DNA of 64,000 bases, from positions 5,018 through 69,017 of the forward strand of contig CAYHKQ010000001.1 in NCBI GenBank assembly GCA_964357255.1. The letters run 5' to 3'. The translations under genes and the position numbers were made by a program. Below are positions 21,136-51,652 of this stretch, piece after piece; within the stretch, counting starts at the first letter, position 1; every line of letters starts with the position of its first letter. Source of the DNA: an uncultured Elusimicrobia bacterium. GTDB lineage: Bacteria; Elusimicrobiota; Elusimicrobia; JACQPE01. The notes under the pieces are model-generated. The model saw only the letters and a program-made list of their open reading frames with translations, made no database searches and was not told where the DNA came from.

Positions 21136-21250
21136 GGCTATTTTGACTACTTCAATCCGCTAAAGTATTACGATTTTTCTTCAGTAGGACTGCGCTTCAA
21201 GACTTTGGTCCCATTGAAAATATTGGGTTTTCGGGCTAAACTTTGTAGAG

Positions 21251-25509: not shown

Positions 25510-26613
25510 CTAAAACCAGACGTGGGTGAGGGCTAGAATTTCGTTGTTTGGCACGGAGGGCGTTTCGGTGACGATTCGGAGTTGGGTTTCCAGGGAAAGA
25601 TATTTCAGCAGGAACCACTCGGCGCCGAGGATGTAGCGTGTGCGCGAGTCTCCCGCCTTTTTGGTGTCGGGATTGAGATTGTCTAATTGTCCGCGCAGGA
25701 GCAGTTCATCCTTGGCCATTTCGTAGTTTAATTCGCCGTGAAAGGCCGTTTGATGGGTTTTTGCCGAGCCGGCATTCGCCGTGTTGGTCCCCCATCCTCC
25801 TTCGCCGATGAACACAATCATCCCAAATCGCGTCCAGCCGAATATTCCGTACCGGATTTCATTTTGCCCCGCGGCGCTGTCGGAATTTCGATGGTGGAAG
25901 AAGGTGGCTCCCATAGCCCCGGTTTTTCCGACAAATCCCCATCGGCCGGCAATCGCCTTGGCCTCGCTGGCCGCGGCGGCGCCGTTGGCGGCGCCATTGG
26001 TAACGGATAGGTTAAAAAAGTATTCGCTTTTTGGCGCCAAGCCGAATTCGATGCCCGTGTCTGACTGGGTCGGCGACAAGGAGAATCCGACCGAAGGCGC
26101 AAAGGGCGAGATGCGGGTCAGTCCGGAATTGTCGGGGTCGTTGAGTTGAAGGCCGTAGGGAATGAAAAAACGGCCCGCGCGCAGATAGGCCGGGAAGTCC
26201 CCAGGGAGCTTGGCGAGAGCGTACATTTCAGCCGTAGCGCCCTGATTGTTGTTGTAGAGGAGAGCCAACTCGGGAGTCGGAACGGCCAGCACGTAGAAGG
26301 CGTTGCGGACAACGGCGAAGGATGCGGCCGGTCCCGCCTCTTTTTTGTTCAGCATAAAACGGAAGTCCGCTCCAAGATTAACGGTGTCGCTTAATCGGGT
26401 GGGGTTGGAGGCCGATGGTTTTCTCATTCCACCTCCCGTCGGATTGATATGACAGGCCGCGCAGTTATAACCACGCGAAGCCGCATAATAGGGCTGAGCC
26501 TGGAGGAGGGAGCGGTTGAGCGGTTGAGCGGTTGAGCAGATAAGTAAAAAAAAGAATTTCCTTAAAACATTTAACCGCTTAACCGCTAAACAGCTCATCT
26601 GCCAACTCTGCAT
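25510..26613 (-). CDS. Predicted outer-membrane beta-barrel protein with an N-terminal CxxCH (haem-c-type) motif and the conserved leader
   Basis: Leader MQSWQMSCLAVKRLNVLRKFFFLLICSTAQPLNRS; GYNCAACHINPTGGG; beta-rich body; C-terminal ...THVWF (terminal Phe). Confidence 0.45.
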   Translation of the reverse strand: MQSWQMSCLAVKRLNVLRKFFFLLICSTAQPLNRSLLQAQPYYAASRGYNCAACHINPTGGGMRKPSASNPTRLSDTVNLGADFRFMLNKKEAGPAASFAVVRNAFYVLAVPTPELALLYNNNQGATAEMYALAKLPGDFPAYLRAGRFFIPYGLQLNDPDNSGLTRISPFAPSVGFSLSPTQSDTGIEFGLAPKSEYFFNLSVTNGAANGAAAASEAKAIAGRWGFVGKTGAMGATFFHHRNSDSAAGQNEIRYGIFGWTRFGMIVFIGEGGWGTNTANAGSAKTHQTAFHGELNYEMAKDELLLRGQLDNLNPDTKKAGDSRTRYILGAEWFLLKYLSLETQLRIVTETPSVPNNEILALTHVWF

Positions 26614-26614
26614 T

Positions 26615-27622
26615 TTATATTTTTACCCTTATCCCTAATTGATAGCTGTGGCCGAGTTGGCTGGAGGGTTGAACGGCCAGATCAAGACTTAGTGAACCCC
26701 ATTGAAGGCCGATTCCCGCGGTAAGACCGTCGAAGTATTCTCCAGGCCGGGCCGTTTCGGTGCGAAATCCGGCGCGGAAAGCCATGTAGAGAGGAATTTG
26801 GCGAAAGGGGCCGATCTCGGCCCATCGTTCCAGCCCCGCGTGCCAAGCCGGGTCATTGTCGCGCGCAACGACAAGGTCCAGGCTCGCAATGCCTTCGGGC
26901 AAGCCGGCTTGGTCTGCCTCGGGAGCCAGGCGGTAGGATAGGCCGGTTTTAAAGGTCAGGGGCAGGGGGGCCGAGGCTTGGCGTAATTGGACACGCTGGC
27001 CGATGTTGTCCGCGGTCAAAGAAAAGGCAAACGCTTTAACCCTGCGCAGGAGTCCCACGTCAAACGCTATGGCCTTTGCGGTTTCACCGTCAATGCCTTG
27101 GAAAATCCACTTTTCCGAGGCGCCAAGCGCCCAGGACCCGTCACCTATCGGCCGCGTCAGCGAGATGCAATAGGATTGATCCGATGGAGCGAACCTGCCG
27201 AATGCCGTTTCCGTGTTGTCTATTTTTTGGATTGCCTGGTGCTCAAGGCTTGTGAAAGAGAATCCGAACGTAAATCGTGAATAGCTCAGCGGCTGGGCGA
27301 AGGAAAGATAGCTGTAGCGGTAGAAGGACGGGAAATTATTGTGGCTGGCAACCAGTTCCCTTTTAGAAATTTGGCCCAGCCCGGCGGGGTTCCAATAAGC
27401 GGCGGTGGCGTCGTTAGCAACGGACGAAAAGGCTCCGCCCATGGCCGCGGCCCTGGCCCCGGCCGGGATTTTGAGAAATTGGGCTCCGGACGTGCCCCTG
27501 TCCCGTGAGGAGAAAGCCGCCCAGGAGGGGGAGCGGTTAAGCAGATAAGCGCTTAAGCAGATAAGGAAAAAAAAGGCGCTCAACCGCCCAACGGCCAAAC
27601 CGCTTAACCGTTTTTGTTTCAT
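26615..27622 (-). CDS. PorV/PorQ-like (FadL-type) outer-membrane beta-barrel protein
   Basis: Leader MKQKRLSGLAVGRLSAFFFLICLSAYLLNRS, then GARAAAMGGAFSSVANDATAAYWNPAGLG, characteristic of PorV/UPF0164-like barrels. 4-nt overlap with the upstream cargo-like gene. Confidence 0.45.
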   Translation of the reverse strand: MKQKRLSGLAVGRLSAFFFLICLSAYLLNRSPSWAAFSSRDRGTSGAQFLKIPAGARAAAMGGAFSSVANDATAAYWNPAGLGQISKRELVASHNNFPSFYRYSYLSFAQPLSYSRFTFGFSFTSLEHQAIQKIDNTETAFGRFAPSDQSYCISLTRPIGDGSWALGASEKWIFQGIDGETAKAIAFDVGLLRRVKAFAFSLTADNIGQRVQLRQASAPLPLTFKTGLSYRLAPEADQAGLPEGIASLDLVVARDNDPAWHAGLERWAEIGPFRQIPLYMAFRAGFRTETARPGEYFDGLTAGIGLQWGSLSLDLAVQPSSQLGHSYQLGIRVKI

Positions 27623-28887
27623 CGAATTATTGCCAGTTGGCCGGTTTTGACCCTGCCCCCATCATCCTGGGCGCTGTAAAGGTAGGTTCCGCTTGCCACG
27701 TCGTGGCCGCTACTGTTTTTGCCGTCCCAGAGTAATTGGTCGCCGGCGCCGGGATGTTTTTCCAGGGTCACCAGGAGTTCGCCGCTGACGCTGAAAATGC
27801 GGATCGTGGCGCGTTCCGTCAAGTATCGGAAGAAAATTCCCTGGCCGTCGAAATTTCCTCCGCTACCGGGCCGGTAGGGATTGGGTAAAACCGTTAACGA
27901 GTTCAGGCTTGAGGCGGAGGGAACGCCCAGGAGAGCGTAGACGGAAAAATGAGAAACCGGCGCTGAAATTTTTTTGCCGGATGTATTAAGCGAGAATCCC
28001 GGCACAGCCTCCCAGCGCTTGGAGGCCGCGTTGAGGGTGTAGAGTTGAAGCTGTTGGGCGCGCAAGGATGGCGAGGTGTTATCCACGACGCCGTCGTTGC
28101 TCGCGTCCGCGTAGGAAAGGCTGATGGTTATGGGACTGGCAAAATTATCGGTTTTTAATTCTCCTCCAGCCAGGGCGGCGAATTCTCTCAAGGAGCCGGC
28201 AAGAAGAATTTGCGACGAGTCTAGCGCGCTGTTGGCGCTCGCAATGTCGGCCGGCAGGGCTGTTATGGGCTTGGTTACGGGATCGAGGCTCACAAGCACG
28301 CTTCCCGCTCCTCCCAGGGCGCCGGCCGGGACTTGAACTTGCGTGGCGCCGTTTTCGGCGCTCAAGGCGGCATCCTCGTTGGCGCCGATGGATAGCGACG
28401 CGTCGGGAGTGATCACGGTTTGCGTGGAAGATTCGGCAAAGCCAAGATTATTTTCAGCTCTTAAGAGTCTTGAATAATTCGCGCCGGCCGCAAGGCCGGT
28501 TTCAATCCAAAAGGTGGTGGAGCCGCTCAGAGCGGCCAGAAATCCCGCCGTGCTCGTTGTGAGCGCATAGGCGCTGATATCGGCCTGGCTTGACCACGAC
28601 CATTTAATGCTTTCGGACGACAAGACTGCGCCTGAAAACGAGCTTGTCGAAGACGATTGGTTTGAGGCGGAGGAAATGGTGAAGACAAGGCCGTCCGAAC
28701 TTCCGATAGAGTTTTTTACCACGATTTTTCCTGTGGCGGTGGAAGGGATGACGGCTGTGATCGAGGTATCCGACCAGGAAGAATAAAAGGCGGTCATTGC
28801 GTTGAGCGTAACGGTTCCCGGGACAACGCCGAAAGCAACGCCGGTGATGGTTGTAGTGGAGCCGACGGCGCCGAAGGAGGGGGTCAA
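27619..28887 (-). CDS. Cell-surface protein with Ser/Thr-rich Ig/IPT-like repeats and a T9SS-type C-terminal sorting domain
   Basis: C-terminus LTVLPNPYRPGS...IRIFSVSGELLVTLEKH...LLWDGKNSSGHDVASGTYLYSAQDDGGRVKTGQLAIIR matches the NPF...IYDxxGRLV...WDGxN..G..VASGVYFY...GKL..IR pattern of Por_Secre_tail/FlgD-Ig-like domains. Confidence 0.55.
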   Translation of the reverse strand: MTPSFGAVGSTTTITGVAFGVVPGTVTLNAMTAFYSSWSDTSITAVIPSTATGKIVVKNSIGSSDGLVFTISSASNQSSSTSSFSGAVLSSESIKWSWSSQADISAYALTTSTAGFLAALSGSTTFWIETGLAAGANYSRLLRAENNLGFAESSTQTVITPDASLSIGANEDAALSAENGATQVQVPAGALGGAGSVLVSLDPVTKPITALPADIASANSALDSSQILLAGSLREFAALAGGELKTDNFASPITISLSYADASNDGVVDNTSPSLRAQQLQLYTLNAASKRWEAVPGFSLNTSGKKISAPVSHFSVYALLGVPSASSLNSLTVLPNPYRPGSGGNFDGQGIFFRYLTERATIRIFSVSGELLVTLEKHPGAGDQLLWDGKNSSGHDVASGTYLYSAQDDGGRVKTGQLAIIR

Positions 28888-33643: not shown

Positions 33644-34330
33644 TTACCAGTCATTCTCCACATTTGTTTCCTGGGAGCGGCGTTTTTTCATTTTTTGGGC
33701 TTGCTTCATTTGCTCTTGCTCGAAGGAATCGAGGAGCGACTGTATAGCCTGTTGGTCCATTTGGGACTCTTCATTTTTTTTCTGTTGGTCCTGTTTGTCT
33801 TCCCCCCCTCCCTGGCCGCCGGAATTTTTTTGGTTCTCCGGGGGTTTGGTAAGCCTCAGCGCCAGGGCCAGATTATGCCGCGCGTCCTCGTCTGCGGGAT
33901 TGAGCAATAGAGATTTTTTGTACGCTTCAACCGCTTCCTGGGTTTTGTTCTGACTGTAGAGCGCGTTGCCCAAATTGTACCAGCTTGCCGCTTGAAGTTT
34001 CGTGTCTTTGGCTGACGATTGTCTTGATTGGGCAAAGGATCGCGAGGCGTCTTCTAGGTCGCCTAGTTTATATGTCGCGCAACCCTTATTAAATTGAATG
34101 ATGGGATTTTTTGGATCGAGCCGGCCGGCCTGATTGAACGAGTTTAACGCCGATTGGTAATCGCCTTTTTTGAATTGGTCCGCCCCCTCCCGCGTGGGAG
34201 GCTTCCAGGAAGCCGCATGAGGAAAGGTGAATGAGGTGAACAACGTCAATAAGGTAAACAATGCAAAAGACAACCAAAGAGTATTTTTTTTAACCTGATT
34301 CGCCTCATTCGCCTTATTCATATTATTCAC
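33644..34330 (-). CDS. batC: BatC-like TPR protein
   Basis: N-terminal TM, TPR repeats (YQSALNSFNQAGRLDPKNP, NLGNALYSQNKTQEAVEAYKKSLLLNP), a C-terminal charged low-complexity tail. Confidence 0.6.
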   Translation of the reverse strand: MNNMNKANEANQVKKNTLWLSFALFTLLTLFTSFTFPHAASWKPPTREGADQFKKGDYQSALNSFNQAGRLDPKNPIIQFNKGCATYKLGDLEDASRSFAQSRQSSAKDTKLQAASWYNLGNALYSQNKTQEAVEAYKKSLLLNPADEDARHNLALALRLTKPPENQKNSGGQGGGEDKQDQQKKNEESQMDQQAIQSLLDSFEQEQMKQAQKMKKRRSQETNVENDW

Positions 34331-35343: not shown

Positions 35344-36368
35344 GGCAAAGTCAGCAGTAGCGTGCCGCGCAGAAGGATTTCGGTTCCCAAGAGAAACAGA
35401 GCCGCCATGAGTAGCGGCGGATACAGCTCTTCGTAGTGATGCGTCTTGGGCGGGGCGGCCTCGGTTTTTTCAAGGCGGTCGATTTCTTCGAAGATTCCCT
35501 TGAGTTCGTTGAGTTCCGTGGCCCGGAAGTATTTCCCCTCCGTGATTTCGGCGACCTTGGTGAGCGTATCCTCGTCAATCTCTTCCTCAGGCCGGCGAAT
35601 ATAGCGCGTTCCGAAAATCGGGTCCACCACAGGGAAAATTCCGCCGCCCCGCTTTCCGGTGCCGATGGTGTAGATTTTGACGCCGAGCGCTCGCGCTGTT
35701 TTGGCTCCGGTGACGGGGTCCACGGATCCCGCGTTGTTTCTGCCGTCCGTCAGAAGAATAATGGTTTTTGATTTGCTCGGGACTTTTTTGAGATGCGCCA
35801 GGGAAACCATAATCGCGCTACCTATGGCCGTGCCGTCGGTTTGGGTCATATTGATTTCGACTTGCTCTAAGAAACTTTGCACGGCCTGTTTGTCTAGCGT
35901 CAAGGGGCACGCGAGGATAGCCGCCCCTCCAAAGGCCACAATGCCGATGCGATCTGAGCCGCGTTTATCCACGAACTCCGAGGCGATTTTTTTGGCGCCC
36001 TGAAGGCGGTTGAAGGGCTGAAAATCCAGGGCTTGCATCGAGCCCGAAGTGTCGAGGGCGAGCGCGATGTCGACGCCGAGCAAGGGTTCCAGCTGTTCAG
36101 TGGTCACTTTTTGCGGCCGCATCAGGGCCAGGACCAAAACGGCCAAGGCGGCCGCGCGAATGAGGGCAAGAATTATAGAGGACGGGTGGCGTCGGCGCAG
36201 GCCGCTTTGTTGATTTAACAATTGATAGTTATGTTCCGCTTTGGAGTAAATCAGGGCGGCTGAAGCCGAGACTTTCTTATGTTTGAGGATTTGGATGATC
36301 AAAGATACGCCGAGTCCAAGAATCAGGCAAGCCAGGCCGAGCCAGGGAGATGCGAACTCGAGTTTCAT
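35340..36368 (-). CDS. batA: BatA-like von Willebrand factor A domain membrane protein
   Basis: N-terminal TM and VWA with MIDAS DTSGSM...TDG. Confidence 0.7.
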   Translation of the reverse strand: MKLEFASPWLGLACLILGLGVSLIIQILKHKKVSASAALIYSKAEHNYQLLNQQSGLRRRHPSSIILALIRAAALAVLVLALMRPQKVTTEQLEPLLGVDIALALDTSGSMQALDFQPFNRLQGAKKIASEFVDKRGSDRIGIVAFGGAAILACPLTLDKQAVQSFLEQVEINMTQTDGTAIGSAIMVSLAHLKKVPSKSKTIILLTDGRNNAGSVDPVTGAKTARALGVKIYTIGTGKRGGGIFPVVDPIFGTRYIRRPEEEIDEDTLTKVAEITEGKYFRATELNELKGIFEEIDRLEKTEAAPPKTHHYEELYPPLLMAALFLLGTEILLRGTLLLTLP

Positions 36369-37339
36369 GCGGTCTTTTGCGTTGCCGCGTTTTCCGGCTC
36401 CGCCGCCGGCGCAGGGCGCGCTCGGTGCGCCTCGACAAATTCTTTAAGAATCGTCACTGCGTGGGCGTTCTCCCCGTCGTCCGGCGCGTATTTGGCGAAT
36501 TTGGCAAGGTCGGTAATTTCAAGGCTTTCTTTTAAGCGAATCACGGCCGGCAAGTCAACGCCCAGGCTCTGGCGCTCCCTGTGCAGGAGGCGCGTGAGTT
36601 CCGCGCTGGTCAAGCTTTGGGTGTCGAGGCTAAAGCGCCGGTCAAGATACTTGCGGTAAATCTCGCTTAACGCGAAATAAAATTCCCGGTTTTTTCGTGA
36701 TTCCAAGAGGCGCATCTGAATCAGCGCGGCAAGATCGCGCTCGAAAGTTTCTTCAGCGCTGAGCTTGGATTGCGCCTGACGTCCGGCTTGAGCCTGGATT
36801 TTATGACGCGAGCGCAAAAACCATAACAGCGCCAGGATTCCCAGAATGCCGCCCACGCTAAAGCCGGCAATCACCCATGGCTTCTCCCAGAAGTAAAGGG
36901 GTTTTCTGGGTCGCTTGATATCCCGAAGCTCGGCCGGGTTTTTCGCGTTGTGCGTGGGGTCGAGAATTTTAAGATGAACCGGAGGGGTTTTAACGACAGT
37001 CGTTTGCCCGATGGTTCCTTGGGCGGGAATTTCCAAACTCGGCACATCCATATCTCCGATTTTAAACGCCATCAGCGCGACGTCCAGCATGGTGATTTTT
37101 TTGTCGCCGTCTTTGCCTTCCTTGGAATGGAAATCCCACAGCGTAAAATCCCCCCATTGAGTTTGGCCGGTTTTCCAAGAGGTTAAGTCAATTTTGACGG
37201 CATTGCCCGAACGAATCGTGTAGGCAATGGCTACCGGATGGGCCAGGGGAACCTCGGTTTGCCTGGGTTTGGCTTCAACGCCGATAGTTTCCTGGCCGAA
37301 GGCAAGGGTTATTAGGAGTATCCAAATTGAACTGTTCAT
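36365..37339 (-). CDS. DUF4381-like membrane protein (the usual upstream partner of batA)
   Basis: Signal peptide, KILDPTH...IKRPRKPLYFWEKPWVIAGFSVGGILGILALLWFL (the ILDIRPP...PW motif plus a TM). Confidence 0.45.
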   Translation of the reverse strand: MNSSIWILLITLAFGQETIGVEAKPRQTEVPLAHPVAIAYTIRSGNAVKIDLTSWKTGQTQWGDFTLWDFHSKEGKDGDKKITMLDVALMAFKIGDMDVPSLEIPAQGTIGQTTVVKTPPVHLKILDPTHNAKNPAELRDIKRPRKPLYFWEKPWVIAGFSVGGILGILALLWFLRSRHKIQAQAGRQAQSKLSAEETFERDLAALIQMRLLESRKNREFYFALSEIYRKYLDRRFSLDTQSLTSAELTRLLHRERQSLGVDLPAVIRLKESLEITDLAKFAKYAPDDGENAHAVTILKEFVEAHRARPAPAAEPENAATQKTA

Positions 37340-37366
37340 GGGACGAAAAATATTCTAACTTACTTA

Positions 37367-37518
37367 GTAACTATTCAGGTGCGGCGCTCCCCTTGCTGTC
37401 ATTCCCGCGAAAGCGGGCCGTTCGCAGGGCTCGCGGCACCTTGGGGCGCCGGAGGCGCTGATCGGGAATCCAGGCCCCGACCCCCGCCTTCGCGGGGGTG
37501 ACGGACCTGAACAGTTAC
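37367..37518 (+). mobile_element. MITE-like repeat, copy A (152 bp)
   Basis: TIRs gtaactattcagg / cctgaacagttac (12/13 inverted). 8-bp flanking direct repeats cttactta / cttgctta. Internal perfect hairpins cccgc-GAAA-gcggg and cccccgc-CTTC-gcggggg. About 95% identical to copy C. Confidence 0.7.
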
Positions 37519-37556
37519 CTTGCTTATAAATAATAATTTCAAGAGGAGGCGACGCC

Positions 37557-38894
37557 GTGAAAACTTTAACCAAACCGATCGCTAAAAAAGAGAATATGTC
37601 GTTGAATAGCGCGCACTGGAAGGACCGCGAACGCTATGTCACCGGCAGTTTTTACCATTACACCCGTATTTTTATTAAAGAGGCGAGCGGGGCCGTGATG
37701 TGGGACGTGGACGGCAAGCGCTATTTGGATTTCACCGGAGGCATCGGCGCCTTGAACGTGGGCCATTGCCATCCAAGAGTGGTCGAGGCCATCCGCCGCC
37801 AGGCCGGGGAGTTTCTGCACACCTGTTTTCCAGCGATCGCTTACGAAAATTATGTGCGCGTATGCCAAAAATTATGCGAGGCCGTGCCAGGAAATTTTCC
37901 GAAAAAAGCCATGCTCGTTAACAGCGGCGCCGAGGCCGTTGAGAACGCGGTTAAGTTTGCCAAGAGTTATACCAAGCGGAGCGCCGTTATTTCCTTTGGG
38001 CAGGCTTTTCATGGCAGGACGCTTTTGGCCTTCACGTTGACCGGCAAGGAAAATCCCTATCGCCTGGGCCTGGGGCCTTACGCGGCCGACGTTTATCACG
38101 CGTATTATCCTTATTCTTACCGGCCTCCCGTGGGAGTGGCGAGCCGCGACGTATGCGCTTATGCGTTGGGCCGCTTGGAGGAGATGTTCCATACCCAGGT
38201 GGATCCCAGCCGCGTGGCCGCGATTTTGGTGGAGCCGGTGCAAGGCGAGGGCGGCTTTGTGGTGCCTCCGACGGATTTTCTCCCCGCCCTTCGTAAAATT
38301 TGCGACCAGCACGGGATCGTCTTAATCGTGGACGAGGTGCAGACCGGCTTTGGCCGCACCGGCAAGATGTTCGCGCATGAGCACGCGGGGATCACATCGG
38401 ATCTCGTGACCGTGGCTAAATCCATCGCGGCCGGGCTTCCCTTGGCCGGCGTGGTGGGCCGGGCTCAGATTATGGACGCCGCGGAGGAAGGCGGCGTGGG
38501 TAGCACTTACGGAGGCAATCCGGTAGCTTGCGCGGCGAGCCTGGCAGTGTTTGAAATTTTTGAGCAAGAGAGGCTCCTGGAGCGCGCCAGAAAAATCGGT
38601 TTAACTATCGAGACGCGTTTTAAGTCCTGGGCTAAACAGATGCCGATGGTCGGCGAGGCGCGGGGCTTGGGAGCGATGCAGGCCGTAGAACTCGTGGCGG
38701 ACCGCTCCACTAAAGAACCGATGCCCTTAAAAACCATGAAGGCGATTTTGGGCGATTGCTCAAAAAAGGGATTGATGATTCTTAAAGCCGGAGCCTACGG
38801 CAATGTGATCCGCACCTTAGTTCCCCTGGTGGCTACGGATGAGGAAATTACCGAGGGGCTGGACATTTTGGAATCGGTGTTAAAGGAGCTTTAA
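37557..38894 (+). CDS. Class III (omega) aminotransferase (GABA/putrescine aminotransferase-like)
   Basis: AT-III fold; the PLP-lysine region VDEVQTGFGRTGKMFAHEH...TVAKSIAAGLPL; 445 aa. Confidence 0.8.
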   Translation: MKTLTKPIAKKENMSLNSAHWKDRERYVTGSFYHYTRIFIKEASGAVMWDVDGKRYLDFTGGIGALNVGHCHPRVVEAIRRQAGEFLHTCFPAIAYENYVRVCQKLCEAVPGNFPKKAMLVNSGAEAVENAVKFAKSYTKRSAVISFGQAFHGRTLLAFTLTGKENPYRLGLGPYAADVYHAYYPYSYRPPVGVASRDVCAYALGRLEEMFHTQVDPSRVAAILVEPVQGEGGFVVPPTDFLPALRKICDQHGIVLIVDEVQTGFGRTGKMFAHEHAGITSDLVTVAKSIAAGLPLAGVVGRAQIMDAAEEGGVGSTYGGNPVACAASLAVFEIFEQERLLERARKIGLTIETRFKSWAKQMPMVGEARGLGAMQAVELVADRSTKEPMPLKTMKAILGDCSKKGLMILKAGAYGNVIRTLVPLVATDEEITEGLDILESVLKEL

Positions 38895-38895: not shown

Positions 38896-40437
38896 ATGAG
38901 CGCGGCCACTGTCGAAAAGAAGCAAGGTCTGAAAACTCAAAAGGCTCGCGAATTTAAAATGTTGCTCGGCGGGCGCTGGTCTGGCGCGGCAAGCGGAGCC
39001 ATAAGGACCTTAGTGAATCCCGCCAATGCCAAGCCCTTGGCTACGGCGCCGGAGGCCGGCGTCAAGGACGTAAATTTTGCCGTGGCCCAGGCCAGGAAGG
39101 CTTTTGAAGACGGCCGCTGGTCCAAGAAACCCCCCTGTGAACGTTCGCTAACCCTCTTTCGCTTGGCCGACAAGATCGAACAAAATATTGACGCTCTGGC
39201 CGAACTCGAAATAGCCAATTGCGGCAAGCCCCGAAAATTGGCGCGCGAAAGTGATTTGCCTTTTGCCATTGATAATGTGAGGTTTTTTGCGGGAGCCCTC
39301 AGAACATTGGGCGGCTCCGCGTCGCTCGAGTATGCCGGCGGTTGCACAAGTATTATTTGCCGCGAACCCATCGGCGTCGTGGGGCTCGTGGCCCCGTGGA
39401 ATTACCCTTTTTTGATGGCAGTTTGGAAAATTATGCCGGCCCTGGCCGCTGGTAATGCGGCTATTTTTAAGCCTTCGGAATTGACGCCGCTGACTGCGCT
39501 TGAACTGGGGCGTTTGGCTTTGGAGGCCGGGATACCCGAAGGCGTTTTGCAAATCGTGACCGGAGCCGAAGAGGCGGGCCGGGCGCTTAGCGCGCATCCC
39601 GGGGTGGACATGATTTCTTTTACCGGGGACACGCAAACCGGCAAAAAAATTCTGGCCCAGGCCGCGCCTACTCTGAAAAAATGCCACATGGAGCTTGGCG
39701 GCAAAGCGCCTTTTGTCGTTTTTGCCGATGCTGATTTAGAAGCCGCGCTTCAAGGGGCCGTGGTGGCGGGCGTCGTCAATGCGGGGCAGGATTGCACCGC
39801 GGCCACGCGCATCTATGTCGAGGAAAAGCGTTATGACGAATTTCTAGAGAGGTATGTGAAATTAATGAAAACTGTCCGCGTGGGCGATCCCTTGAACAAA
39901 CTGACCGACATGGGCCCTTTAATCAGCAAGAATCAGAGGGATCGGGTGGAAGGCTTTGTCCGCCGCGCCTTGTCCGCCGGCGCCAAGGCCCTTTGCGGCG
40001 GCGAGCGGCCTTCCTCGGCCGAAACCAAGGACGGTTATTATTTTCTTCCTACCGTGATCGTCGGCGCCAAGCAAGATTCTGAGATTGTGCAGAATGAGGT
40101 TTTCGGCCCGGTTGTTTGCGTTTTGCCTTTTAAGACCGAAGAGGAGGCTGTCCGGCTGGCTAATGATGTGCGCTATGGCCTGGCTTCGAGCGTATGGACC
40201 AAGGATGTTCATAGGGCTTGGCGGGTTTCAGCCGCGCTCAAATTCGGCACGGTCTGGGTTAATGATCACTTGCCGCTGACATCCGAAATGCCGCATGGCG
40301 GCTGTAAGTCCAGTGGTTTTGGCAAGGATTTATCGGTTTGGGCCCTCGAAGAGTACACCCAGATCAAACATATCATGGCCGACACCACTGGCCTGGCCCG
40401 AAAACCCTGGCACTACACCGCCTTTGGCTCAGTCTAA
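38896..40437 (+). CDS. NAD-dependent aldehyde dehydrogenase (aminobutyraldehyde/betaine-aldehyde DH-like)
   Basis: Catalytic glutamate MELGGKAP; NAGQDCTA; 513 aa. Confidence 0.8.
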   Translation: MSAATVEKKQGLKTQKAREFKMLLGGRWSGAASGAIRTLVNPANAKPLATAPEAGVKDVNFAVAQARKAFEDGRWSKKPPCERSLTLFRLADKIEQNIDALAELEIANCGKPRKLARESDLPFAIDNVRFFAGALRTLGGSASLEYAGGCTSIICREPIGVVGLVAPWNYPFLMAVWKIMPALAAGNAAIFKPSELTPLTALELGRLALEAGIPEGVLQIVTGAEEAGRALSAHPGVDMISFTGDTQTGKKILAQAAPTLKKCHMELGGKAPFVVFADADLEAALQGAVVAGVVNAGQDCTAATRIYVEEKRYDEFLERYVKLMKTVRVGDPLNKLTDMGPLISKNQRDRVEGFVRRALSAGAKALCGGERPSSAETKDGYYFLPTVIVGAKQDSEIVQNEVFGPVVCVLPFKTEEEAVRLANDVRYGLASSVWTKDVHRAWRVSAALKFGTVWVNDHLPLTSEMPHGGCKSSGFGKDLSVWALEEYTQIKHIMADTTGLARKPWHYTAFGSV

Positions 40438-41007
40438 TTTTTCTGCGGCAGTTTCTTCCTCTTTGAGTAATTTCTCACCCATTTGAGAATGACCGCGCAG
40501 GGTATCAGCTTCCCTTTCCGCGCTTTTGGCGGGGAAGTAGGCGACAGCCCATCCTGCCACAAATAAGCCGGCTCCGCCGAAAAAGAGGAGAGCCCCCAGA
40601 ACCGGCAATCCGCTCATTCCAATGGCCACGCTTGCCCAAGAGGTTGCGAATCCTGGAATGGCAAGAGACCACGATAAAACATGCAACGCGGTTGCCTTTG
40701 AGGAGGCGTTTTGCGCCTTTTCTTCCCAGTAATTTTTTGCGGTTTTAAGAAGAAATTGATTACGTTGCCGTTGCTTCATTTGGTGGTTTTTACGCTCAAG
40801 CCCGGCATCGTCCTGGGCGATATCTCCGATTTGGACAGGCGCATTTGGCGTATTGCCTTGAGGCGCGGCGCCATGCATTAAATTTTCCACGATTATTTTG
40901 CCTTGAATTGCTTGATCTTGCGAAGTGGGGCTGGGGTTGGCCAAAAGACTAGCAACACAGCCACCGATCGCACTGACAGTAATAAGAATTTTTTTGTTGG
41001 TTAGCAT
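40429..41007 (-). CDS. Hypothetical membrane protein
   Basis: Start taken at MLTNKK (AAGGAG SD); the longer ORF-track start lacks an RBS. N-terminal TM/signal, C-terminal hydrophobic segments. Confidence 0.4.
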   Translation of the reverse strand: MLTNKKILITVSAIGGCVASLLANPSPTSQDQAIQGKIIVENLMHGAAPQGNTPNAPVQIGDIAQDDAGLERKNHQMKQRQRNQFLLKTAKNYWEEKAQNASSKATALHVLSWSLAIPGFATSWASVAIGMSGLPVLGALLFFGGAGLFVAGWAVAYFPAKSAEREADTLRGHSQMGEKLLKEEETAAEKLD

Positions 41008-41128
41008 AGTCGTTCTCCTTCGTTGTCTCCGCTTTATACTCGGACAAGGGGCTTGCTGACTGCCACCTTTCGTCCGCTGTTTACATATATATTGTAACAA
41101 AGTGGAAGGGGTCATTCATTTTATTTTT

Positions 41129-41356
41129 GTAACTACTCAGGTTCCTCTTCCCCGTCATTCCGGCGAAAGCCGGCCGTTCGCAGAGCTCGCGGCACCTTGG
41201 GGCGCCTGAGGCGCTGATCGGGAATCCAGGATTTCATTCTGCAAATCAAGAACTGGATACCGGCTTTCGTCCCGTCAGGAGACGGGACAGTCCCCTCAAT
41301 TTTAATAGAGGGTTGGGACGCCGGTATGACGAATCCAAAAAAACCTGGGTAGTTAC
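41129..41356 (+). mobile_element. MITE-like repeat, copy B (228-bp variant)
   Basis: TIRs gtaactactcagg / cctgggtagttac. Perfect 8-bp TSD ttattttt on both sides. First ~105 bp homologous to copies A and C, then a different module with the hairpin gtcccgtc-AGGA-gacgggac. Confidence 0.7.
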
Positions 41357-41432
41357 TTATTTTTAACCATGAGAGCGTTTGCGGATTTCGTTTTAATCAG
41401 TAAAATGGAGACTTGACCCTTAAAAATGACCC

Positions 41433-42044
41433 TTAAAAGTGAACGGCCAATTTGTCTTTTTGGACTTCGAATTTTTGGATGCCGTAGGGCAGAGGAAAGA
41501 GGCGCGAGAAGTCCATGGGCGGGCGTTGGTTTTCGCCGAGATACCGAAGAATTTGGCTGACCAGACTTTCCGGAACGGTGATTCCATTAATTTTTAGGGA
41601 AAGGACTTTGACATAGCCTTTGCCTTTGGCCGATCCGGATTGAAGTTGGGCCTCGATTGTGCTGCCGATGCCGCCGGCCTTGGCCAACAGTTTTGCGCTC
41701 ATTGAATTGCTATCCGCCTTAAAAACTTTTTTCCATTCCACGCGCGCTACGGCCCGGACCGTCAGAAGCTTGTCGCCGAGAAGAGTAATATTAACGGATT
41801 GTATTTGATCCTTCCCTTTTTGAGCCGCGAGATTGGCCAGATAGGCGTTGAGTTCTTCTTCGCTTACGGCGACCGTCTTGCCGCTCAGGGGCGAACGTTG
41901 GCCGGGATTAGTCACGTTTTTGATTTTTTCAACGATGTTGTGAATTTTATGGATGGCCGTTGCGCTGGCGTTTATGGATGCCACGGACGCCGCGTTTGTC
42001 CCCGCGGCTAAGGCGGCGCCAATAAGAATTTTTAGAATCGTCAT
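41433..42044 (-). CDS. Hypothetical secreted protein
   Basis: Signal peptide MTILKILIGAALAAGTNAASVAS. No diagnostic motifs. Confidence 0.35.
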   Translation of the reverse strand: MTILKILIGAALAAGTNAASVASINASATAIHKIHNIVEKIKNVTNPGQRSPLSGKTVAVSEEELNAYLANLAAQKGKDQIQSVNITLLGDKLLTVRAVARVEWKKVFKADSNSMSAKLLAKAGGIGSTIEAQLQSGSAKGKGYVKVLSLKINGITVPESLVSQILRYLGENQRPPMDFSRLFPLPYGIQKFEVQKDKLAVHF

Positions 42045-46426: not shown

Positions 46427-47968
46427 TTAAGGGGCCTGGTTGGTGAAACGAACGCTGACCTCGTTTCCTTCGACGGCGAGCGAACCGGGTATATCCGCGT
46501 CCAATTTAAATCCATTCTCTTCAATTTTAAGATTTTGGAATGCCCAGGAGCCGTCCGTTAAGACGAGGGGCTTGCCGTCTAGAAAAATGGTCCCGTCACC
46601 CACGAGGTTGGTTTCGGGGTTTGACATGTTGCGAAGGAGAATGATCCGCCCTGAGGCGCTTAAAGCATAGCCTGGGCCGCCGATTTCAAAGTCGCCGCCT
46701 TTGATGAGCCAGCCTTCCGGCAGGTCATCATATAACTCGCTTTTAGAAATATTGAAGCCGGAAACCTTCTTGGGCATGAGCCGCAAACGGCGTCCCGGGG
46801 CGTTCTTAAATTCATTCATGGCCTCATCCCGCGAGGTTGTGTAAGTTTGGATTTTTTGTTGGGCCTCGGCTAGCAATATGTCGTATTGATATTGGCTCTT
46901 GGCAAGGTTCAAGCGATTTTGGGATTCGATCTCGCTCAAAGGCCAAGCTACGCTAAGCGCCTGCCAGGGGTTTTGCCCTTGTTGGATTTTTTTTCTCCAT
47001 TGCCCGGCGACAAGGCCGTCGAGCAGATAGCATTGCGCGGCGCCGGTTATGTAATAGCGCCATTTTTTCATCATGTTGAAGTGCAGTTCCTTTTGAAGTT
47101 CCATTGACAATTTTGTCCGTGGATTTTGATAAAAGGCGGTTTCAAGGGCCTCTAGTTCAACAAATCGCGCCGTGCCTTCATTGCGCTCCTGCCACGCTTC
47201 GGCATTTTGAGCTTCTTGGGATAGCCGTTGATACCGGGCCTGGCGGATGGCGATGAAATTTTTTGTTTTTTCAAGGCGTTGCGGCCACGCGGTCGCGCCG
47301 AGCGCATCGGCCAGGGTTCGCTGTTCTAATGCGGCCAAGGCAAGATTAACTTCATCCAGCACAGGATAATTTTGGTTGCCGCCGCTCGATGATTTCCAGG
47401 AATCTTGGAAGCCGTGGAATCGTTCATGGACTACGGTTGCAAATGTTTCATCGGCGCCGGCGCCTGATTCAACGCGATAGAGAAAAGCGCTCTGGCCGTT
47501 AATCTGATAGTCAAAATCCATGTAAGGGGCATTGGAAATGCCGCCGTTGAGAATATAAACGGGGACGCGCGGGGCGCTTGGCGCCGGGTAGCGCAGGTAG
47601 CCGTCTGGAGGATCGGCCATGGCGATTAAGATGGCCGTTTCCCCGGGCGTATTAAGAAGAATTGGTTTGTCAAAAACTTTGTAGCCCGGCCATAGGGCTT
47701 CTATTTTAGCCGCGCTTGTCGCCAGTTTAGAAACTAACGATTGAAAGGAAGGTGAAAGCAGTGGGGGCCGAGAAGCCGGGCCGGATATTTTGATCTGTCC
47801 AAGATTCAGCGGCCCGATCAGGACAGGCTGGGCCGAGCGGCCATGAAAGACTTGCTGAATTCTCGTATGAACGCCGCCGGGGTCTTGGCCCCAGAGGGGC
47901 AAGGCGGCTAAAGCAAATAAGGTCAATGAGGCGAAAAAGGCAAGGCCAATCGCTCGCTTCAATAGCAT
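46427..47968 (-). CDS. Hypothetical secreted protein with an HERFH (HExxH) motif
   Basis: Signal peptide MLLKRAIGLAFFASLTLFALAALPLWGQ; TFATVVHERFHGFQDSW; 513 aa. Confidence 0.35.
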   Translation of the reverse strand: MLLKRAIGLAFFASLTLFALAALPLWGQDPGGVHTRIQQVFHGRSAQPVLIGPLNLGQIKISGPASRPPLLSPSFQSLVSKLATSAAKIEALWPGYKVFDKPILLNTPGETAILIAMADPPDGYLRYPAPSAPRVPVYILNGGISNAPYMDFDYQINGQSAFLYRVESGAGADETFATVVHERFHGFQDSWKSSSGGNQNYPVLDEVNLALAALEQRTLADALGATAWPQRLEKTKNFIAIRQARYQRLSQEAQNAEAWQERNEGTARFVELEALETAFYQNPRTKLSMELQKELHFNMMKKWRYYITGAAQCYLLDGLVAGQWRKKIQQGQNPWQALSVAWPLSEIESQNRLNLAKSQYQYDILLAEAQQKIQTYTTSRDEAMNEFKNAPGRRLRLMPKKVSGFNISKSELYDDLPEGWLIKGGDFEIGGPGYALSASGRIILLRNMSNPETNLVGDGTIFLDGKPLVLTDGSWAFQNLKIEENGFKLDADIPGSLAVEGNEVSVRFTNQAP

Positions 47969-48207: not shown

Positions 48208-48570
48208 ATGGCGCTCAAAATAAAGTACTACCCCCATGGTGACTCTGGTGAAGTTCGTGAGTATCTGGAGGCATTGCGGCAGGATGGCCAGAGAAAGAAG
48301 GCGGCGGTCAAACTGGATATCGATCTGCAGACGCTTGAGGAGTTTTGGCCTAAAACCATGAATGTGACAGTCAGAACTCTCAAAGGGCGGGAACCCTTGA
48401 AGGAGATTAAAAGACGCTTTGACAAGATCGCTTACCGGATTTTTATTTGCATCAAGAAGAGCGAGCTTTGGCTTCTTTCGGCCTATGAAAAGGAATCGGA
48501 TGATACGCCTAGAAATGAGCTCGAAAAAGCTTATAAGCGAATGAAGGAAATTTTGGAGGCGAAACCATGA
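48208..48570 (+). CDS. Type II toxin, Gp49/COG4679 (HigB/RelE-like) family
   Basis: 120 aa; KIAYRIFICIKKSELWLLSAYEKESDDTPRNELEKAYKRMKE (phage-derived Gp49-like killer motif). 4-nt overlap with a downstream XRE gene. Confidence 0.6.
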   Translation: MALKIKYYPHGDSGEVREYLEALRQDGQRKKAAVKLDIDLQTLEEFWPKTMNVTVRTLKGREPLKEIKRRFDKIAYRIFICIKKSELWLLSAYEKESDDTPRNELEKAYKRMKEILEAKP

Positions 48571-48914
48571 AAAGAAAAAAACAGGAAATTCAATTCGACC
48601 AAGATGTGCGCAAAGCCATTGAATCTGACCCTGAATATGCAACAGAATATTTTGAGGAGCTTATGCAACGTCCTCTTCCCGTGCAATTTGCGCTTTTGCG
48701 TAAGTTTCTAGGCATGACCCAGGAACAACTGGCCAGAGCCTTGGGGCTTAAACAAACCCACATCTCTAGGCTTGAAAATGTGGATTCTGACCATCTTTTG
48801 AGCCTTTATAAGAGGGCTGCCGAAAAGATGGGATCTCGTTTGGCCATTGTCCCAGAGAATATGACTCTGGTCCCTAGAGATTATCTCCAGAAGTTCCATT
48901 CAGCGCATCTTTAA
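48567..48914 (+). CDS. XRE-family HTH antitoxin (HigA-like)
   Basis: HTH LRKFLGMTQEQLARALGLKQTHISRLENVD. Translationally coupled to the toxin. Confidence 0.6.
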   Translation: MKRKKQEIQFDQDVRKAIESDPEYATEYFEELMQRPLPVQFALLRKFLGMTQEQLARALGLKQTHISRLENVDSDHLLSLYKRAAEKMGSRLAIVPENMTLVPRDYLQKFHSAHL

Positions 48915-48920: not shown

Positions 48921-49030
48921 GTAACTGATCCGTGATTCCGCAGTTGGCTTGTCACCACCGCGAAGGCGGGGCCCAGACTCCGACGAGACCCGGATTCCCG
49001 CTTTCGCGGGAATGAGTGTGCCAAGAGGGT
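48921..49030 (-). repeat. Degenerate, inverted copy D of the MITE-like repeat
   Basis: Begins gtaactgatcc and contains ccaccgcgaaggcgggg and cccgctttcgcgggaatg. These are reverse complements of the two hairpin modules of copies A and C, in swapped order. The far end has decayed. Confidence 0.4.
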
Positions 49031-49066
49031 TGAGAAGGGGGCAAGTTTCCATTTTCCTGTTATTGT

Positions 49067-49504
49067 CTAAGGCGTATTGCAGGAAACCTCTACGTCATAA
49101 CAAGTAGTGCACGAAGCAAGTTCGGAAGACTTTTTGGTTTCAAAAGCCGATGGCTTCGATGACGATAGGGGCGAAATTTTGCACTCACGAGAGCTTGGCC
49201 AATTCCCGCTCCCCGTGCATTGCTTGAAACATTTCTTGGCAAGATCACTATCGGGATTAGCTTGTTGGAAAGCTTTGCGCTTAAGCAAACATATTTTATC
49301 AATCTCCTCCTGATTGGTAAAGTTGCTTCTGATATTCTGTGTTCTGGAGTTGTCTATTTTTTCTTGCATGGACTGGCTTTTTTGTAGCGATAATTTTTTA
49401 TCCGGCAGTTTTTTTTCTTCGGCGCGCAGACCCGTCGCCAGGCAACCTCCGACGGCAAGGACAAGCGCGCACGTTAGCGCTTTTGATTCTTTTGTTATTA
49501 GCAT
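49067..49504 (-). CDS. Small Cys-rich putative lipoprotein
   Basis: Signal with LAVGGC lipobox-like cysteine; 9 Cys in a 145-aa, Lys/Ser-rich protein. Confidence 0.35.
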   Translation of the reverse strand: MLITKESKALTCALVLAVGGCLATGLRAEEKKLPDKKLSLQKSQSMQEKIDNSRTQNIRSNFTNQEEIDKICLLKRKAFQQANPDSDLAKKCFKQCTGSGNWPSSRECKISPLSSSKPSAFETKKSSELASCTTCYDVEVSCNTP

Positions 49505-49599: not shown

Positions 49600-50595
49600 T
49601 TATGGAACGCTGATCGTTTCGAGGATTTCGTGGATGATGTCTTCGCTCGTGATGTTTTCGGCTTCGGCTTCGTAGCTTAGAAGCACGCGGTGGCGCAGGA
49701 CGTCAAAGGCGATAAGGCGGATGTCCTCAGGCGTGACATAACCCCTGCCTTCGAGAAAGGCGGAGGCTTTGGACGCCTGGGCCAGATAGAGCGTGGCCCG
49801 GGGACTCGCGCCGTAGGCGATCAAGGATTTGAGTTTTTCAAGTTTGTGGTCCTGTGGGAACCTGGTGGCGAAGATGATTTCTATGATGTAGTCCTTGAGT
49901 TTGGGGTCGAGGTAAATTTGGCTCAACGTTGCGCGGGCTTGTAAAATTTCTTCGGTCTTAAGGAGCGGATGGGGTTCGCGCCGGCCGTTTTGCCCTGCGT
50001 AGAGGTCTAAAATTTCAAGCTCGGATTTTTTTGAGGGATAGGTGACTTTTAGTTTTACCAAGAATCGGTCCACCTGGGCCTCGGGAAGAGGGTAGGTGCC
50101 TTCCTGTTCAATCGGATTTTGCGTGGCCAGGACTAAGAAGGGTTCCGTTAATTTGAAGGTTTCATCCCCAATCGTGATTTGTCGCTCTTGCATCGCTTCC
50201 AGAAGGGCTGATTGGGTTTTGGCCGGCGCGCGATTGATTTCGTCAGCCAGAACGAAATTGGAGAAAATCGGGCCTTTTTTGACGATAAAGGTTCCGTCTT
50301 TGGGATGAAAAATCGGGGTTCCCACGATGTCGCCCGGCAGAAGATCGGGCGTAAATTGAATCCGGGAGTAATCCGCCTGGATGAGTCGGGCAAGGGTTTT
50401 CATCGCGAGCGTTTTGCCCAGGCCAGGCACGCCTTCTAAGAGGATATGCCCGTTTGCCAAGAGGGCCAGAATGGCTTTGTGAACTAAATCTTCCTGCCCG
50501 ATGATGAATTTTTCAAGCTCCCGCCGGAGTTCTTGAAATGGCAGGGCCTGTTGACGGATGATCTCAGAGATTTGCTTTAGACTTAATGTTTCCAT
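49600..50595 (-). CDS. MoxR-family AAA+ ATPase
   Basis: Walker A GVPGLGKT, Walker B VLADEINRA, sensor motifs; 331 aa. Confidence 0.9.
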   Translation of the reverse strand: METLSLKQISEIIRQQALPFQELRRELEKFIIGQEDLVHKAILALLANGHILLEGVPGLGKTLAMKTLARLIQADYSRIQFTPDLLPGDIVGTPIFHPKDGTFIVKKGPIFSNFVLADEINRAPAKTQSALLEAMQERQITIGDETFKLTEPFLVLATQNPIEQEGTYPLPEAQVDRFLVKLKVTYPSKKSELEILDLYAGQNGRREPHPLLKTEEILQARATLSQIYLDPKLKDYIIEIIFATRFPQDHKLEKLKSLIAYGASPRATLYLAQASKASAFLEGRGYVTPEDIRLIAFDVLRHRVLLSYEAEAENITSEDIIHEILETISVP

Positions 50596-51431
50596 AAAAA
50601 TGGTTTCACCTCGTATTGAATTTTTCCTTTTTCGGGCCAGGCTTTCAAGAGCCGATGCATGGCCATGACCCGCCAGCCTGGATCCGGGCTGAATTTTTCC
50701 GAGCCCACGACTAGGCGGCGGCCTTCATTCTCAAGCCGCAGGGCCATGCGGTTGTAGGGCTGATCTCTCAGGCATAAGGACTTGCGCTCAACGAGCATTA
50801 GCGAGTGGCATAAGGCCCAGAGATTCCGGCCGTCGGAGATCGCGGCGTTTAAGCCCGTGTAGGGAAATTTCCAATTATTTTTTTTGGATTTGGGCAGGGA
50901 TCGCCACAATTGCCAGATTTCTCGCACCGTTTCAACCAGCGCTTCCGGGATTTTTTTGGTTTTGTCATACCACTTGCACAGAATCCAAAAGTAGATTTCG
51001 CTGTCGTTTTTTCCCTCAAGTTTGCGACGATACGCTCCCAGGAGCTGATCGCGCGCCGCGGCCGCGATGTTGAGAGTTCCGTTATGGGCGAAGGCCAGAC
51101 GGCCAAAGCCGAAAGGCTGGTTATGCTCGCGCGCGATTAAATCTTTGCGGGGAAGTTTCAGGGGGTTTGAGGCGGCGCGAATATGGGCGATGACGATGCG
51201 CGAGGAGCTCTTAGCGGCCTGTTCGATGAACAGGGGGCTTTCTCGGTAAGCGGGGTTGGGGCTTTTGAAAATGTGAAAACCGCCCGGGGCGAGCGTTGCG
51301 ACGCCCCATCCGTCCTTTTGAAGAAAATTTTTTTTTGCCTTGCTCTGCGCCAGCAATGAAGCGCGGGATTTAACGAGATATTCCGAGGGATTGTGGGGCG
51401 TTACGCTGAGTTGAGCAAAAATTCTGCACAT
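50583..51431 (-). CDS. Class II (Ntn) glutamine amidotransferase domain protein (YafJ-like)
   Basis: N-terminal nucleophile MCRIFAQLS; the GATase2 fold; 282 aa. Confidence 0.65.
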   Translation of the reverse strand: MCRIFAQLSVTPHNPSEYLVKSRASLLAQSKAKKNFLQKDGWGVATLAPGGFHIFKSPNPAYRESPLFIEQAAKSSSRIVIAHIRAASNPLKLPRKDLIAREHNQPFGFGRLAFAHNGTLNIAAAARDQLLGAYRRKLEGKNDSEIYFWILCKWYDKTKKIPEALVETVREIWQLWRSLPKSKKNNWKFPYTGLNAAISDGRNLWALCHSLMLVERKSLCLRDQPYNRMALRLENEGRRLVVGSEKFSPDPGWRVMAMHRLLKAWPEKGKIQYEVKPFLWKH

Positions 51432-51478
51432 AAGGATGTCCCCATTATTTTATGTTTTTGATAAAATATATTTTTAAG

Positions 51479-51630
51479 GCAACTATTCAGGCGCGGCGCT
51501 CCCCTTGCCGTCATTCCCGCGAAAGCGGGCCGTTCGCAGGGCTCGCGGCACCTTGGGGCGCCGGAGGCGCTGATCGGGAATCCAGGCCCAGACCCCCGCC
51601 TTCGCGGGGGCGACGAACCTGAGCAGTTAC
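51479..51630 (+). mobile_element. MITE-like repeat, copy C (152 bp)
   Basis: gcaactattcagg ... cctgagcagttac. Direct repeat atatttttaag abuts both ends. Same two hairpins as copy A. Ends 22 bp upstream of the aspA-like start codon. Confidence 0.7.
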
Positions 51631-51652
51631 ATATTTTTAAGTTAAATTTCCG

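Follow-up and report, generated by a model that had tools for sequence, protein, structure and literature searches.

What are the short, strongly structured repeats that recur between the genes of a 64-kb stretch of DNA from an uncultured Elusimicrobia bacterium (contig CAYHKQ010000001.1, positions 5,018 to 69,017 of the forward strand; hereafter the window, which means the whole 64,000 nucleotides analysed), and what moved them there? The original prediction, made from the letters of the sequence, described three clear copies and one degenerate, inverted copy of an element resembling a MITE (a miniature inverted-repeat transposable element), with 13-bp terminal inverted repeats (TIRs), 8-bp target duplications and two perfect hairpins. 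We found the copies where it had placed them: the window holds three intact copies (A, B and C) and one decayed copy (D) of a non-coding element of 152-228 bp (Table 1). We conclude that these repeats are non-autonomous DNA transposons, that is, MITEs, and that their mobiliser is most likely a DDE transposase acting in trans and encoded by the single open reading frame (ORF) of an ISBst12-group element of the IS66 family, a reading that we hold with a probability of about 80%.

The window itself supplies the first evidence that the copies form a family with defined ends. The pattern GTAACTAYTCAGG, allowed up to two mismatches, matched seven times, namely at both ends of each intact copy and at one stray site, compared with 0.89 matches expected, and none of 100 shuffled sequences reached seven. 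The predicted TIRs, 13 bp long with zero or one mismatch to the pattern, hold at the ends of all three intact copies; the deviant is the left TIR of copy C, whose first bases, GCAAC, carry the one mismatch. The motif of the first hairpin was found five times against 0.52 expected. Copies A and C, which had been judged about 95% identical, measured 96% over 150 nt, and a 79-nt block is common to A, B and C at 94-95%. Copy B was correctly described as keeping the left ~105 bp and carrying a variant right arm. Copy D is indeed degenerate and inverted, but it retains only one recognisable end (10 of 13 bases, GTAACTGATCCGT) and one canonical, uninterrupted hairpin arm (cattcccgcgaaagcgggaatcc, minus strand); its other end is lost, and neither a second TIR nor a target duplication could be recognised in its sequence. 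When about 50 family members were used in a sensitive BLAST search of the window, no fifth copy appeared.

An 8-bp target duplication had been claimed for the family, and it is present at copy A (7 of 8 bases) and copy B (8 of 8), but not in that form at copy C, whose flanking repeat is 11 bp long. We scanned one genome per species (185,579 species) for GTAACTAYTCAGG-N8-24-GTCATTCC and obtained 78 loci with the same ends and first hairpin in about eleven phyla. They lie in metagenome-assembled genomes (MAGs) of Verrucomicrobiota, Nitrospirota, Chitinivibrionales, KSB1, Chloroflexota and several Pseudomonadota, and also in Elusimicrobiota, Bacteroidota (Cytophagia), Bacillota, Desulfobacterota and a lineage of the candidate phyla radiation (CPR); a single groundwater Verrucomicrobiota MAG (JACQHZ01) supplies 23 contigs. 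When ends within 50-420 bp of each other were paired, 51 complete elements, 55-414 bp long, had flanks that could be compared. Their 8-bp flanks matched perfectly in 18 cases and at seven of eight bases in a further 11, so that 29 of 51 carried a duplication of at least 7/8, whereas only 2 of 408 control comparisons, in which the flanks were shifted by 9-12 bases, reached that level. Every duplicated octamer was different, and together they were 68% A+T. These flank duplications are the signature of insertion by a transposase that makes staggered cuts, reproduced in many phyla, and they bear out the transposase-type insertion that the original prediction had proposed.

The wider copies also show how the family is distributed. 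The sequence between the TIR and the first hairpin differs lineage by lineage, which argues against cross-contamination of bins. Numerous matches of the species scan sit at contig ends in MAG assemblies, as expected of a repeat at which assemblies break; one metagenome contig (L116) begins inside copy A. Closer to home, the window DNA recurs as an identical stretch in groundwater assemblies from well H41 of the Hainich aquifer. A 22-mer from a 49-nt block typical of the window copies (see below) was absent from all 185,579 species genomes, among whose representatives the source genome does not figure; in a metagenome collection it hit three contigs, all from Hainich groundwater. One of these (L119) represents the locus of copy C, and the other two are further loci about 92% identical, of which L118 has a perfect 8-bp duplication (gttttcgt) and L120 a decayed right end. 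The identity of 96% between A and C and of about 92% to L118 and L120 suggests amplification inside this lineage that is not very recent. Viral contigs gave no element match in three scans, and thus no sign of phage carriage, and a BLAST search of plasmids found no match to copy A.

These results bear directly on a further alternative, a local segmental duplication or chance similarity, in favour of which only the low copy number within the window speaks. The copies lie at unrelated loci in the window, on other contigs from the same aquifer and at the 78 loci elsewhere; their flanks are unrelated save for the short duplications; and the shuffle controls for both the TIR and the hairpin motif speak against chance. 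The wider copies and the duplications refute this alternative, to which we assign next to no probability, and the proposal of a mobile family stands.

Which transposase would recognise such ends? IS66-family ends begin GTAA(GCG) and are flanked by 8-bp repeats (PMC11946415), and the ends of the window elements likewise begin with GTAA. This lead led us to six autonomous ISBst12-group elements in other organisms, five read here and one, ISDge4, taken from the literature. They are 1.54-1.64 kb long, come from Geobacillus, Dethiobacteria, Methanolinea, two metagenome lineages and Deinococcus, and all six have ends of the form GTAACT[A/G][C/T]TCAG[C/G] and 8-bp duplications. The MITE TIR matches the five element types read here and ISDge4 at 12-13 of 13 bases. 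ISDge4, from Deinococcus geothermalis, is a single-ORF member of the ISBst12 group that has been experimentally seen to transpose; its TIRs are GTGACTACTCAGCA and GTAACTGCTCAGCA, and its target repeat is 8 bp (PMC12898284). On plasmid pHTA426 of Geobacillus kaustophilus, an IS66-family element is bounded by GTATCTATTCAGCCC and GGGCTGAATAGTTAC and flanked on both sides by gacgagtt. Its protein, annotated as 'IS66-like element ... transposase', matches the Pfam domain DDE_Tnp_IS66 (1.9e-64) as well as zf-IS66 and DUF6444, and has more than 6,000 relatives, many of them on contigs of 1.5-2 kb. Four further elements of 1541-1639 bp have the ends GTAACTATTCAGC / CCTGAATAGTTAC, GTAACTGCTCAGCC, GTTACTGCTCAGGC and GTAACTGTTCAGGG, with differing flanks and 8-bp duplications; the P0027 type has the duplications ataaaaag, cacctttt and agaagttc at three insertion sites.

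At the level of single bases, 14 insertion-sequence ends gave the consensus G-T-A-A-C-T-R-Y-T-C-A-G-S. Among 102 MITE ends, the consensus base is kept in 88-99% at each TIR position through base 13 (C or T being allowed at base 8); conservation stops at base 13-14 and is gone by base 15, and this is also the part that the insertion sequences share. In the window, the left TIR of copy A agrees over its first 12 bases with the Geobacillus and P0027 element ends, and the right TIR of this copy has exactly the sequence found at the Methanolinea element's left end.

We made several side observations on the ISBst12-group elements. The transposase ORF ends at or inside the right TIR (L086, ~3030-3046; L126, ~2070-2084); for P0027 and P0142 the annotation places the end of the ORF inside the TIR, and other ISBst12 types look similar. 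The named proteins most closely related to the P0027 transposase (P0142, P0170, P0209 and P0240) belong to methanogenic archaea (Methanolinea and Methanoregula), so the same 13-bp end occurs on elements of Bacteria and Archaea. An element with an IS110-family (DEDD) transposase lies inside the right TIR of the P0067 type in L096, L098-L101 and L103, about 10-200 nt past the transposase stop; the junction reads CCAGGCTGAG followed directly by ATGTTCTAAG..., and the intact sequence CCAGGCTGAGCAGTTAC is present in L097 and L102. This arrangement suggests that the IS110-type element targets ISBst12 ends.

The matching ends also decide against the partners named in the original prediction, ISL3, IS256 or IS1. 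Mobilisation by another DDE family with 8-bp duplications would suit the duplication length, which by itself fits several families. However, the GTAA start is the signature of the IS66 family (PMC11946415), six ISBst12-group elements share 12-13 of the 13 end bases, and we saw no member of ISL3, IS256 or IS1 with GTAACTAYTCAGG ends. We consider the chance that a different DDE family of this kind is the partner to be very slight. The ends of ISL3, IS256 and IS1 start with GG.

Taken together, the anatomy of the elements, their spread over many loci and phyla, their 8-bp duplications and the identity of their ends with those of bona fide ISBst12-group elements support the following model. An ISBst12-group transposase supplied in trans would recognise the 13-bp ends GTAACTAYTCAGG, the element would be inserted into mostly A+T-rich intergenic DNA, and repair of the staggered cut would leave the 8-bp target duplication. 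The interior is palindromic cargo made of two inverted hairpins of the repetitive extragenic palindromic (REP) type (GTCATTCC-stem-GNRA-stem-GGAAT) and not the remnant of an insertion sequence, and in the Elusimicrobiota lineage the hairpins have acquired lineage-specific inserts. We infer that an ISBst12-type transposase exists in this genome and moves these copies.

Several observations weigh against this model. Base 13 is usually G in the MITEs but C in 11 of the 14 insertion-sequence ends, and the similarity between the two is confined to the 12-13 terminal bases, with none in the subterminal region. By tblastn, an IS66-family transposase is absent from the window, as the original prediction had stated for any full-length cognate transposase, and from about 80 MITE-bearing loci. 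The flanking repeat of copy C is 11 bp instead of the usual 8 bp; it may stem from an unusual staggered cut or from three bases that match by chance next to a duplication of 8 bp. The species scan required the TIR together with GTCATTCC and is thus biased to this core; by our own calculation chance should account for about 9 of its 78 loci. Two of them, L003 and L013, lie within genes and resemble such chance matches. No pair of empty and filled sites was found: the only near-identical strain contigs are L116, which begins inside copy A, and L117, which ends before copy B, and neither spans an insertion site.

Other attempts to find a full-length partner gave nothing. The sequences between distant TIR-like sites in L058, L068 and L048 are ordinary genes with no transposase, and these candidates for long elements were rejected. 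A six-frame search for an IS66 motif 'RKNWLF' returned nothing useful; this motif is absent from the Geobacillus transposase and is a poor probe. In 150 kb of Deinococcus geothermalis plasmids, taken as three 50-kb slices, no IS66-family annotation was present, and the ISDge4 TIR was not found in the first pDGEO01 slice, the sole slice searched. The GTCATTCC motif was absent from the four autonomous elements examined. As the MITEs and the insertion sequences have no similarity beyond base 13-14, the MITEs are not just these insertion sequences shortened by deletion.

What, then, do the ends enclose? In the canonical layout, an end is followed by 0-24 nt, by GTCATTCC-stem-loop-stem-GGAATCC, by a variable middle, by the same arm inverted and by the second end, and the entire element folds into one long hairpin. 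The core is thus a pair of inverted hairpins of the form GTCATTCC-CGC-GAAA-GCG-GGAAT. Both hairpins named in the original prediction were found in copy A. In the window subfamily, both hairpin arms carry insertions in or beside their loops. In the first arm this is the 49-nt block, delimited by comparing A, B and C with copy D and with canonical copies; it is G+C-rich and subfamily-specific, and its terminal CGGG is the same as the preceding sequence. In the right arm of A and C, ATTCC/GGAAT is changed to CCCCC/GGGGG on both sides with the hairpin retained. Both arms of copy B have CCGGC where A and C have CCCGC, which indicates that the two arms change together, and only copy B has a block of about 56 nt with three stems in its right arm (41234-41343). 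A hammerhead or other ribozyme in this three-stem insert was considered and dropped, as the conserved cores are missing and Rfam gave no match.

The hairpins make a second origin worth weighing, namely that the repeats are REPINs (inverted REP doublets) spread by a REP-associated tyrosine transposase (RAYT, an IS200-like HUH enzyme), with the outer inverted repeats incidental. The original prediction had dismissed REP-type spread; insertion is indeed transposase-like, but the hairpin core itself has the sequence of a Neisseria REP. Within it, the arm GTCATTCCCGCG(A/C)A(A/G)GCGGGAATCC equals that REP, as does the arm GTCATTCCCGCGAAAGCGGG of copy A; 35 such arms occur in 150 kb of N. gonorrhoeae, and copies in Azospirillum are similar only across a doublet of about 95 nt. 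The ends tell a different story. Described REPINs make no target duplication and require no TIR, whereas here the duplications lie just outside the 13-bp TIR in more than half of the complete copies. No such TIR lies near the Neisseria arms, where the closest approach to it has four mismatches; tblastn with E. coli RayT gave no significant match, either in the window or in the loci; and 121 of 143 GTCATTCC motifs in MITE-bearing loci lie within 150 nt of a TIR, the remainder being the number expected by chance. We therefore regard spread by a RAYT as improbable. In a separate observation, a Candidatus Moraniibacteriota contig (L061) that also carries a MITE copy has weak RayT-like matches at 168-254 and 3668-3754 (E = 0.02 and 0.5).

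Consistent with insertion by way of the ends, unrelated palindromic cores occur inside the same TIRs with perfect 8-bp duplications (L044, 675-768 and 3706-3808; L052, 5468-5634). Insertion is thus tied to the ends and not to the core, which is cargo that can be exchanged.

Could the hairpins instead be the functional part, as in a structured non-coding RNA gene or a cis-regulatory RNA? The RNA fold of copy A (-80 kcal/mol) is more stable than that of shuffled sequences (z = -3.6). Loops read inward from either end are mostly of the GNRA type (GAAA 21, GAAG 12, GCAG 4). Stem changes are compensatory: among distinct arms, stem pair 9-18 is CG in 10, GC in 7 and UA in 4, double changes keep the pairing, and none of 500 shuffles reached the observed score, in an alignment of which several columns are fixed by the search pattern. 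MITEs of Coxiella also yield small RNAs (PMC5896051). By contrast, the fold as DNA is equally favoured (z = -3.4), the element is symmetric and folds alike from either strand, and hairpin covariation cannot distinguish DNA from RNA. No Rfam family was found on the elements, either at gathering thresholds or at permissive ones (E up to 1). Copies occur in every orientation relative to neighbouring genes, cores are freely swapped between copies while the TIRs are retained, and an RNA function would leave the duplications unexplained. An RNA gene or regulatory RNA as the explanation for these repeats is accordingly very unlikely, and within a transposon the hairpins probably have a structural role only, as stably folded DNA or RNA. 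The sequences GCGAAAGC and GCGAAGC form unusually stable DNA mini-hairpins.

A bolder version of the transposon reading would join the two observations on ends and core. The family may be a hybrid, in which a REPIN-type hairpin doublet, the substrate class of RAYTs, is enclosed by IS66-family DDE ends and has in this form reached at least ten bacterial phyla; the TIR-less REPs of Neisseria and Azospirillum would then be descendants that have lost their ends (compare QMITE2 of Coxiella, below) or the source of the core. We offer this as a tentative idea that is more doubtful than probable. If true, it would provide a concrete route for the origin of REPs and their movement between lineages.

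Table 1. Features of the MITE copies in the window and of ISBst12-group elements with matching ends. Strand '.', no strand; TSD, target-site duplication.
Feature	Position	Strand	Length or sequence	Remark
Copy A	37367..37518	+	152 bp	complete MITE; TIRs GTAACTATTCAGG and CCTGAACAGTTAC
Copy A, left TIR	37367..37379	+	13 bp	0 mismatches to pattern
Copy A, right TIR	37506..37518	-	13 bp	minus strand = GTAACTGTTCAGG
Copy A, left TSD	37359..37366	.	cttactta	7/8 against 37519-37526
Copy A, right TSD	37519..37526	.	cttgctta	read from sequence
Copy A, hairpin 1	37404..37417	+	cccgc-GAAA-gcggg	inside REP-like arm GTCATTCCCGCGAAAGCGGG
Copy A, 49-nt block	37418..37466	+	49 nt	splits first REP-like arm (GCGGG / 49 nt / AATCC)
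49-nt block in other copies	B 41174-41222; C 51530-51578		49 nt	
Copy A, hairpin 2	37481..37498	+	cccccgc-CTTC-gcggggg	second, inverted arm; minus-strand match with 3 mismatches
Copy B	41129..41356	+	228 bp	left ~105 bp like A and C
Copy B, right arm			GGATACCGGC...GCCGGTATGAC	variant; extra ~56-nt structured insert in loop
Copy B, left TSD	41121..41128	.	ttattttt	8/8 against 41357-41364
Copy B, right TSD	41357..41364	.	ttattttt	perfect match to left
Copy C	51479..51630	+	152 bp	left TIR GCAACTATTCAGG
Copy C, left flanking direct repeat	51468..51478	.	atatttttaag (11 bp)	11/11 against right
Copy C, right flanking direct repeat	51631..51641	.	atatttttaag (11 bp)	11/11 against left
Copy D	~48921..49040	-		decayed; opposite orientation to A-C
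P0027 type			1583 bp; GTAACTATTCAGCCCC ... GTCCTGAATAGTTAC	right end = MITE end, 13/13
P0067 type			GTAACTGCTCAGCC ... GCTGAGCAGTTAC	
P0113 type			GTTACTGCTCAGGC ... GCTGAGCAGTAAC	
Methanolinea element			1541 bp; GTAACTGTTCAGGG ... GCTGAACAGTTAC	TSD taaaattc
Dethiobacteria element			1639 bp; GTAACTGCTCAGCC ... GCTGAGTAGTTAC	TSD aaatatat

All four window copies are intergenic, with no ORF of 80 or more amino acids inside them, and the neighbouring genes are arranged in divergent, tandem and convergent fashion. Copy A lies between divergent ORFs (36365-37339(-) and 37557-38894(+)), as does copy C (50583-51431(-) and 51653-53053(+)); copy B lies between two ORFs on the minus strand (40429-41115(-) and 41433-42044(-)), and copy D between convergent ones (48567-48914(+) and 49067-49504(-)). 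At the right end of copy A (37508-37537), a -35-like TGAACA stands 18 nt upstream of AATAAT. By its match to the consensus, this end together with AATAAT may form a candidate hybrid promoter before the 4-aminobutyrate transaminase gene that starts at 37557. Elsewhere, elements give rise to spurious or extended ORFs with translations such as '...VIPAKTGIQ...' and 'MLDSRFRGNDS...' (L068, 2985-3389(-) and 3006-4562(+)).

The window also contains other repeats. A second, different MITE of 137 bp lies at 21035-21171; its TIRs, GTAAGACTTTAGCGG and GTAATACTTTAGCGG, also start with GTAA as in IS66, it has a perfect 8-bp duplication (gatttttc, 21027-21034 and 21172-21179), and its core is another palindrome (CCGCTCATCCTGAGCCTGTCGAAGGATGG ... 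GGTTCGACAGGCTCACCATGAGCGG). We found no other copy of it in the window or in any fetched locus, and the upstream ORF (20278-21054) terminates inside it. A module of about 100 nt occurs three times at 77-80% identity (4530-4650, 26495-26602 on the opposite strand, and 27518-27623), and in each an A+T-rich centre is flanked by the octamers AGCGGTTA / AGCGGTTT, or the complements of these, arrayed in runs; the modules resemble recurring operator or promoter regions. At 7125-7180, 34225-34271 and 47902-47948 lie short tandem repeats of 9 nt that are related to AGGTCAATA.

Compared with known systems, the window elements resemble the ISBst12-group insertion sequences (ISBst12, ISDge4 and the pHTA426 element) in their terminal 12-13 bases and in an 8-bp duplication of variable sequence. 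They differ in being 152-228 bp long and non-coding and in having nothing in common with those elements inside base 13-14, whereas the insertion sequences are 1.54-1.64 kb long and encode one DDE_Tnp_IS66 transposase with its stop codon in the right TIR. The closest published analogue in architecture is QMITE2 of Coxiella burnetii, a MITE of 150-190 bp composed of a TIR, a REP-type palindrome and a second TIR, with direct repeats of 7-11 bp and variable sequence, and with truncated copies that resemble plain REPs (PMC5896051); we liken it to the window elements by its description, not by sequence. QMITE2 differs in that it is known from Coxiella only, has TIRs of about 25-29 bp, contains a GTAG-type REP that is a target of IS1111, and has no named partner transposase. 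The Neisseria REP ATTCCCGCGCAGGCGGGAATC, present in 241 copies, gives rise to REPINs and has been connected with a Group 2 RAYT (bioRxiv 10.1101/2021.07.10.451892). Like the MITE core, the Neisseria REP/dRS3 has an arm (C)GTCATTCCCGCG-NN-GGCGGGAATCC(A)G, often in inverted pairs less than 130 bp apart. However, the Neisseria and Azospirillum copies have neither GTAACTAYTCAGG ends nor 8-bp duplications, and the Neisseria repeats are attributed to a RAYT and not to a DDE transposase.

Classical MITEs (Correia/CREE, ERIC, RUP, MITEAba12 and Chunjie) are likewise short, non-coding and intergenic, with TIRs, duplications and long hairpins, but differ from the window elements in their ends, duplication lengths and partner families. 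The term IS66 is absent from a 2024 review of prokaryotic MITEs, and full-text literature searches for the end and hairpin strings found nothing relevant besides the Neisseria papers; in these string and keyword searches and in that review, we found no description of a MITE tied to the IS66 family or its ISBst12 group. As a kind of element, then, the repeat is ordinary, a MITE; its ends and duplication place the family with the ISBst12 group of IS66, and its core is the Neisseria REP. What is unusual is its breadth: a single 13-bp end recurs across about eleven phyla, and autonomous elements of Firmicutes, Deinococcus and methanogenic archaea have it too. Because such elements break MAG assemblies and create spurious ORFs, a defined model of them would improve annotation. 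And because the hairpin is common to the REPs of Neisseria and Azospirillum, the relation between a MITE mobilised by a DDE transposase and a REPIN associated with a RAYT becomes directly testable.

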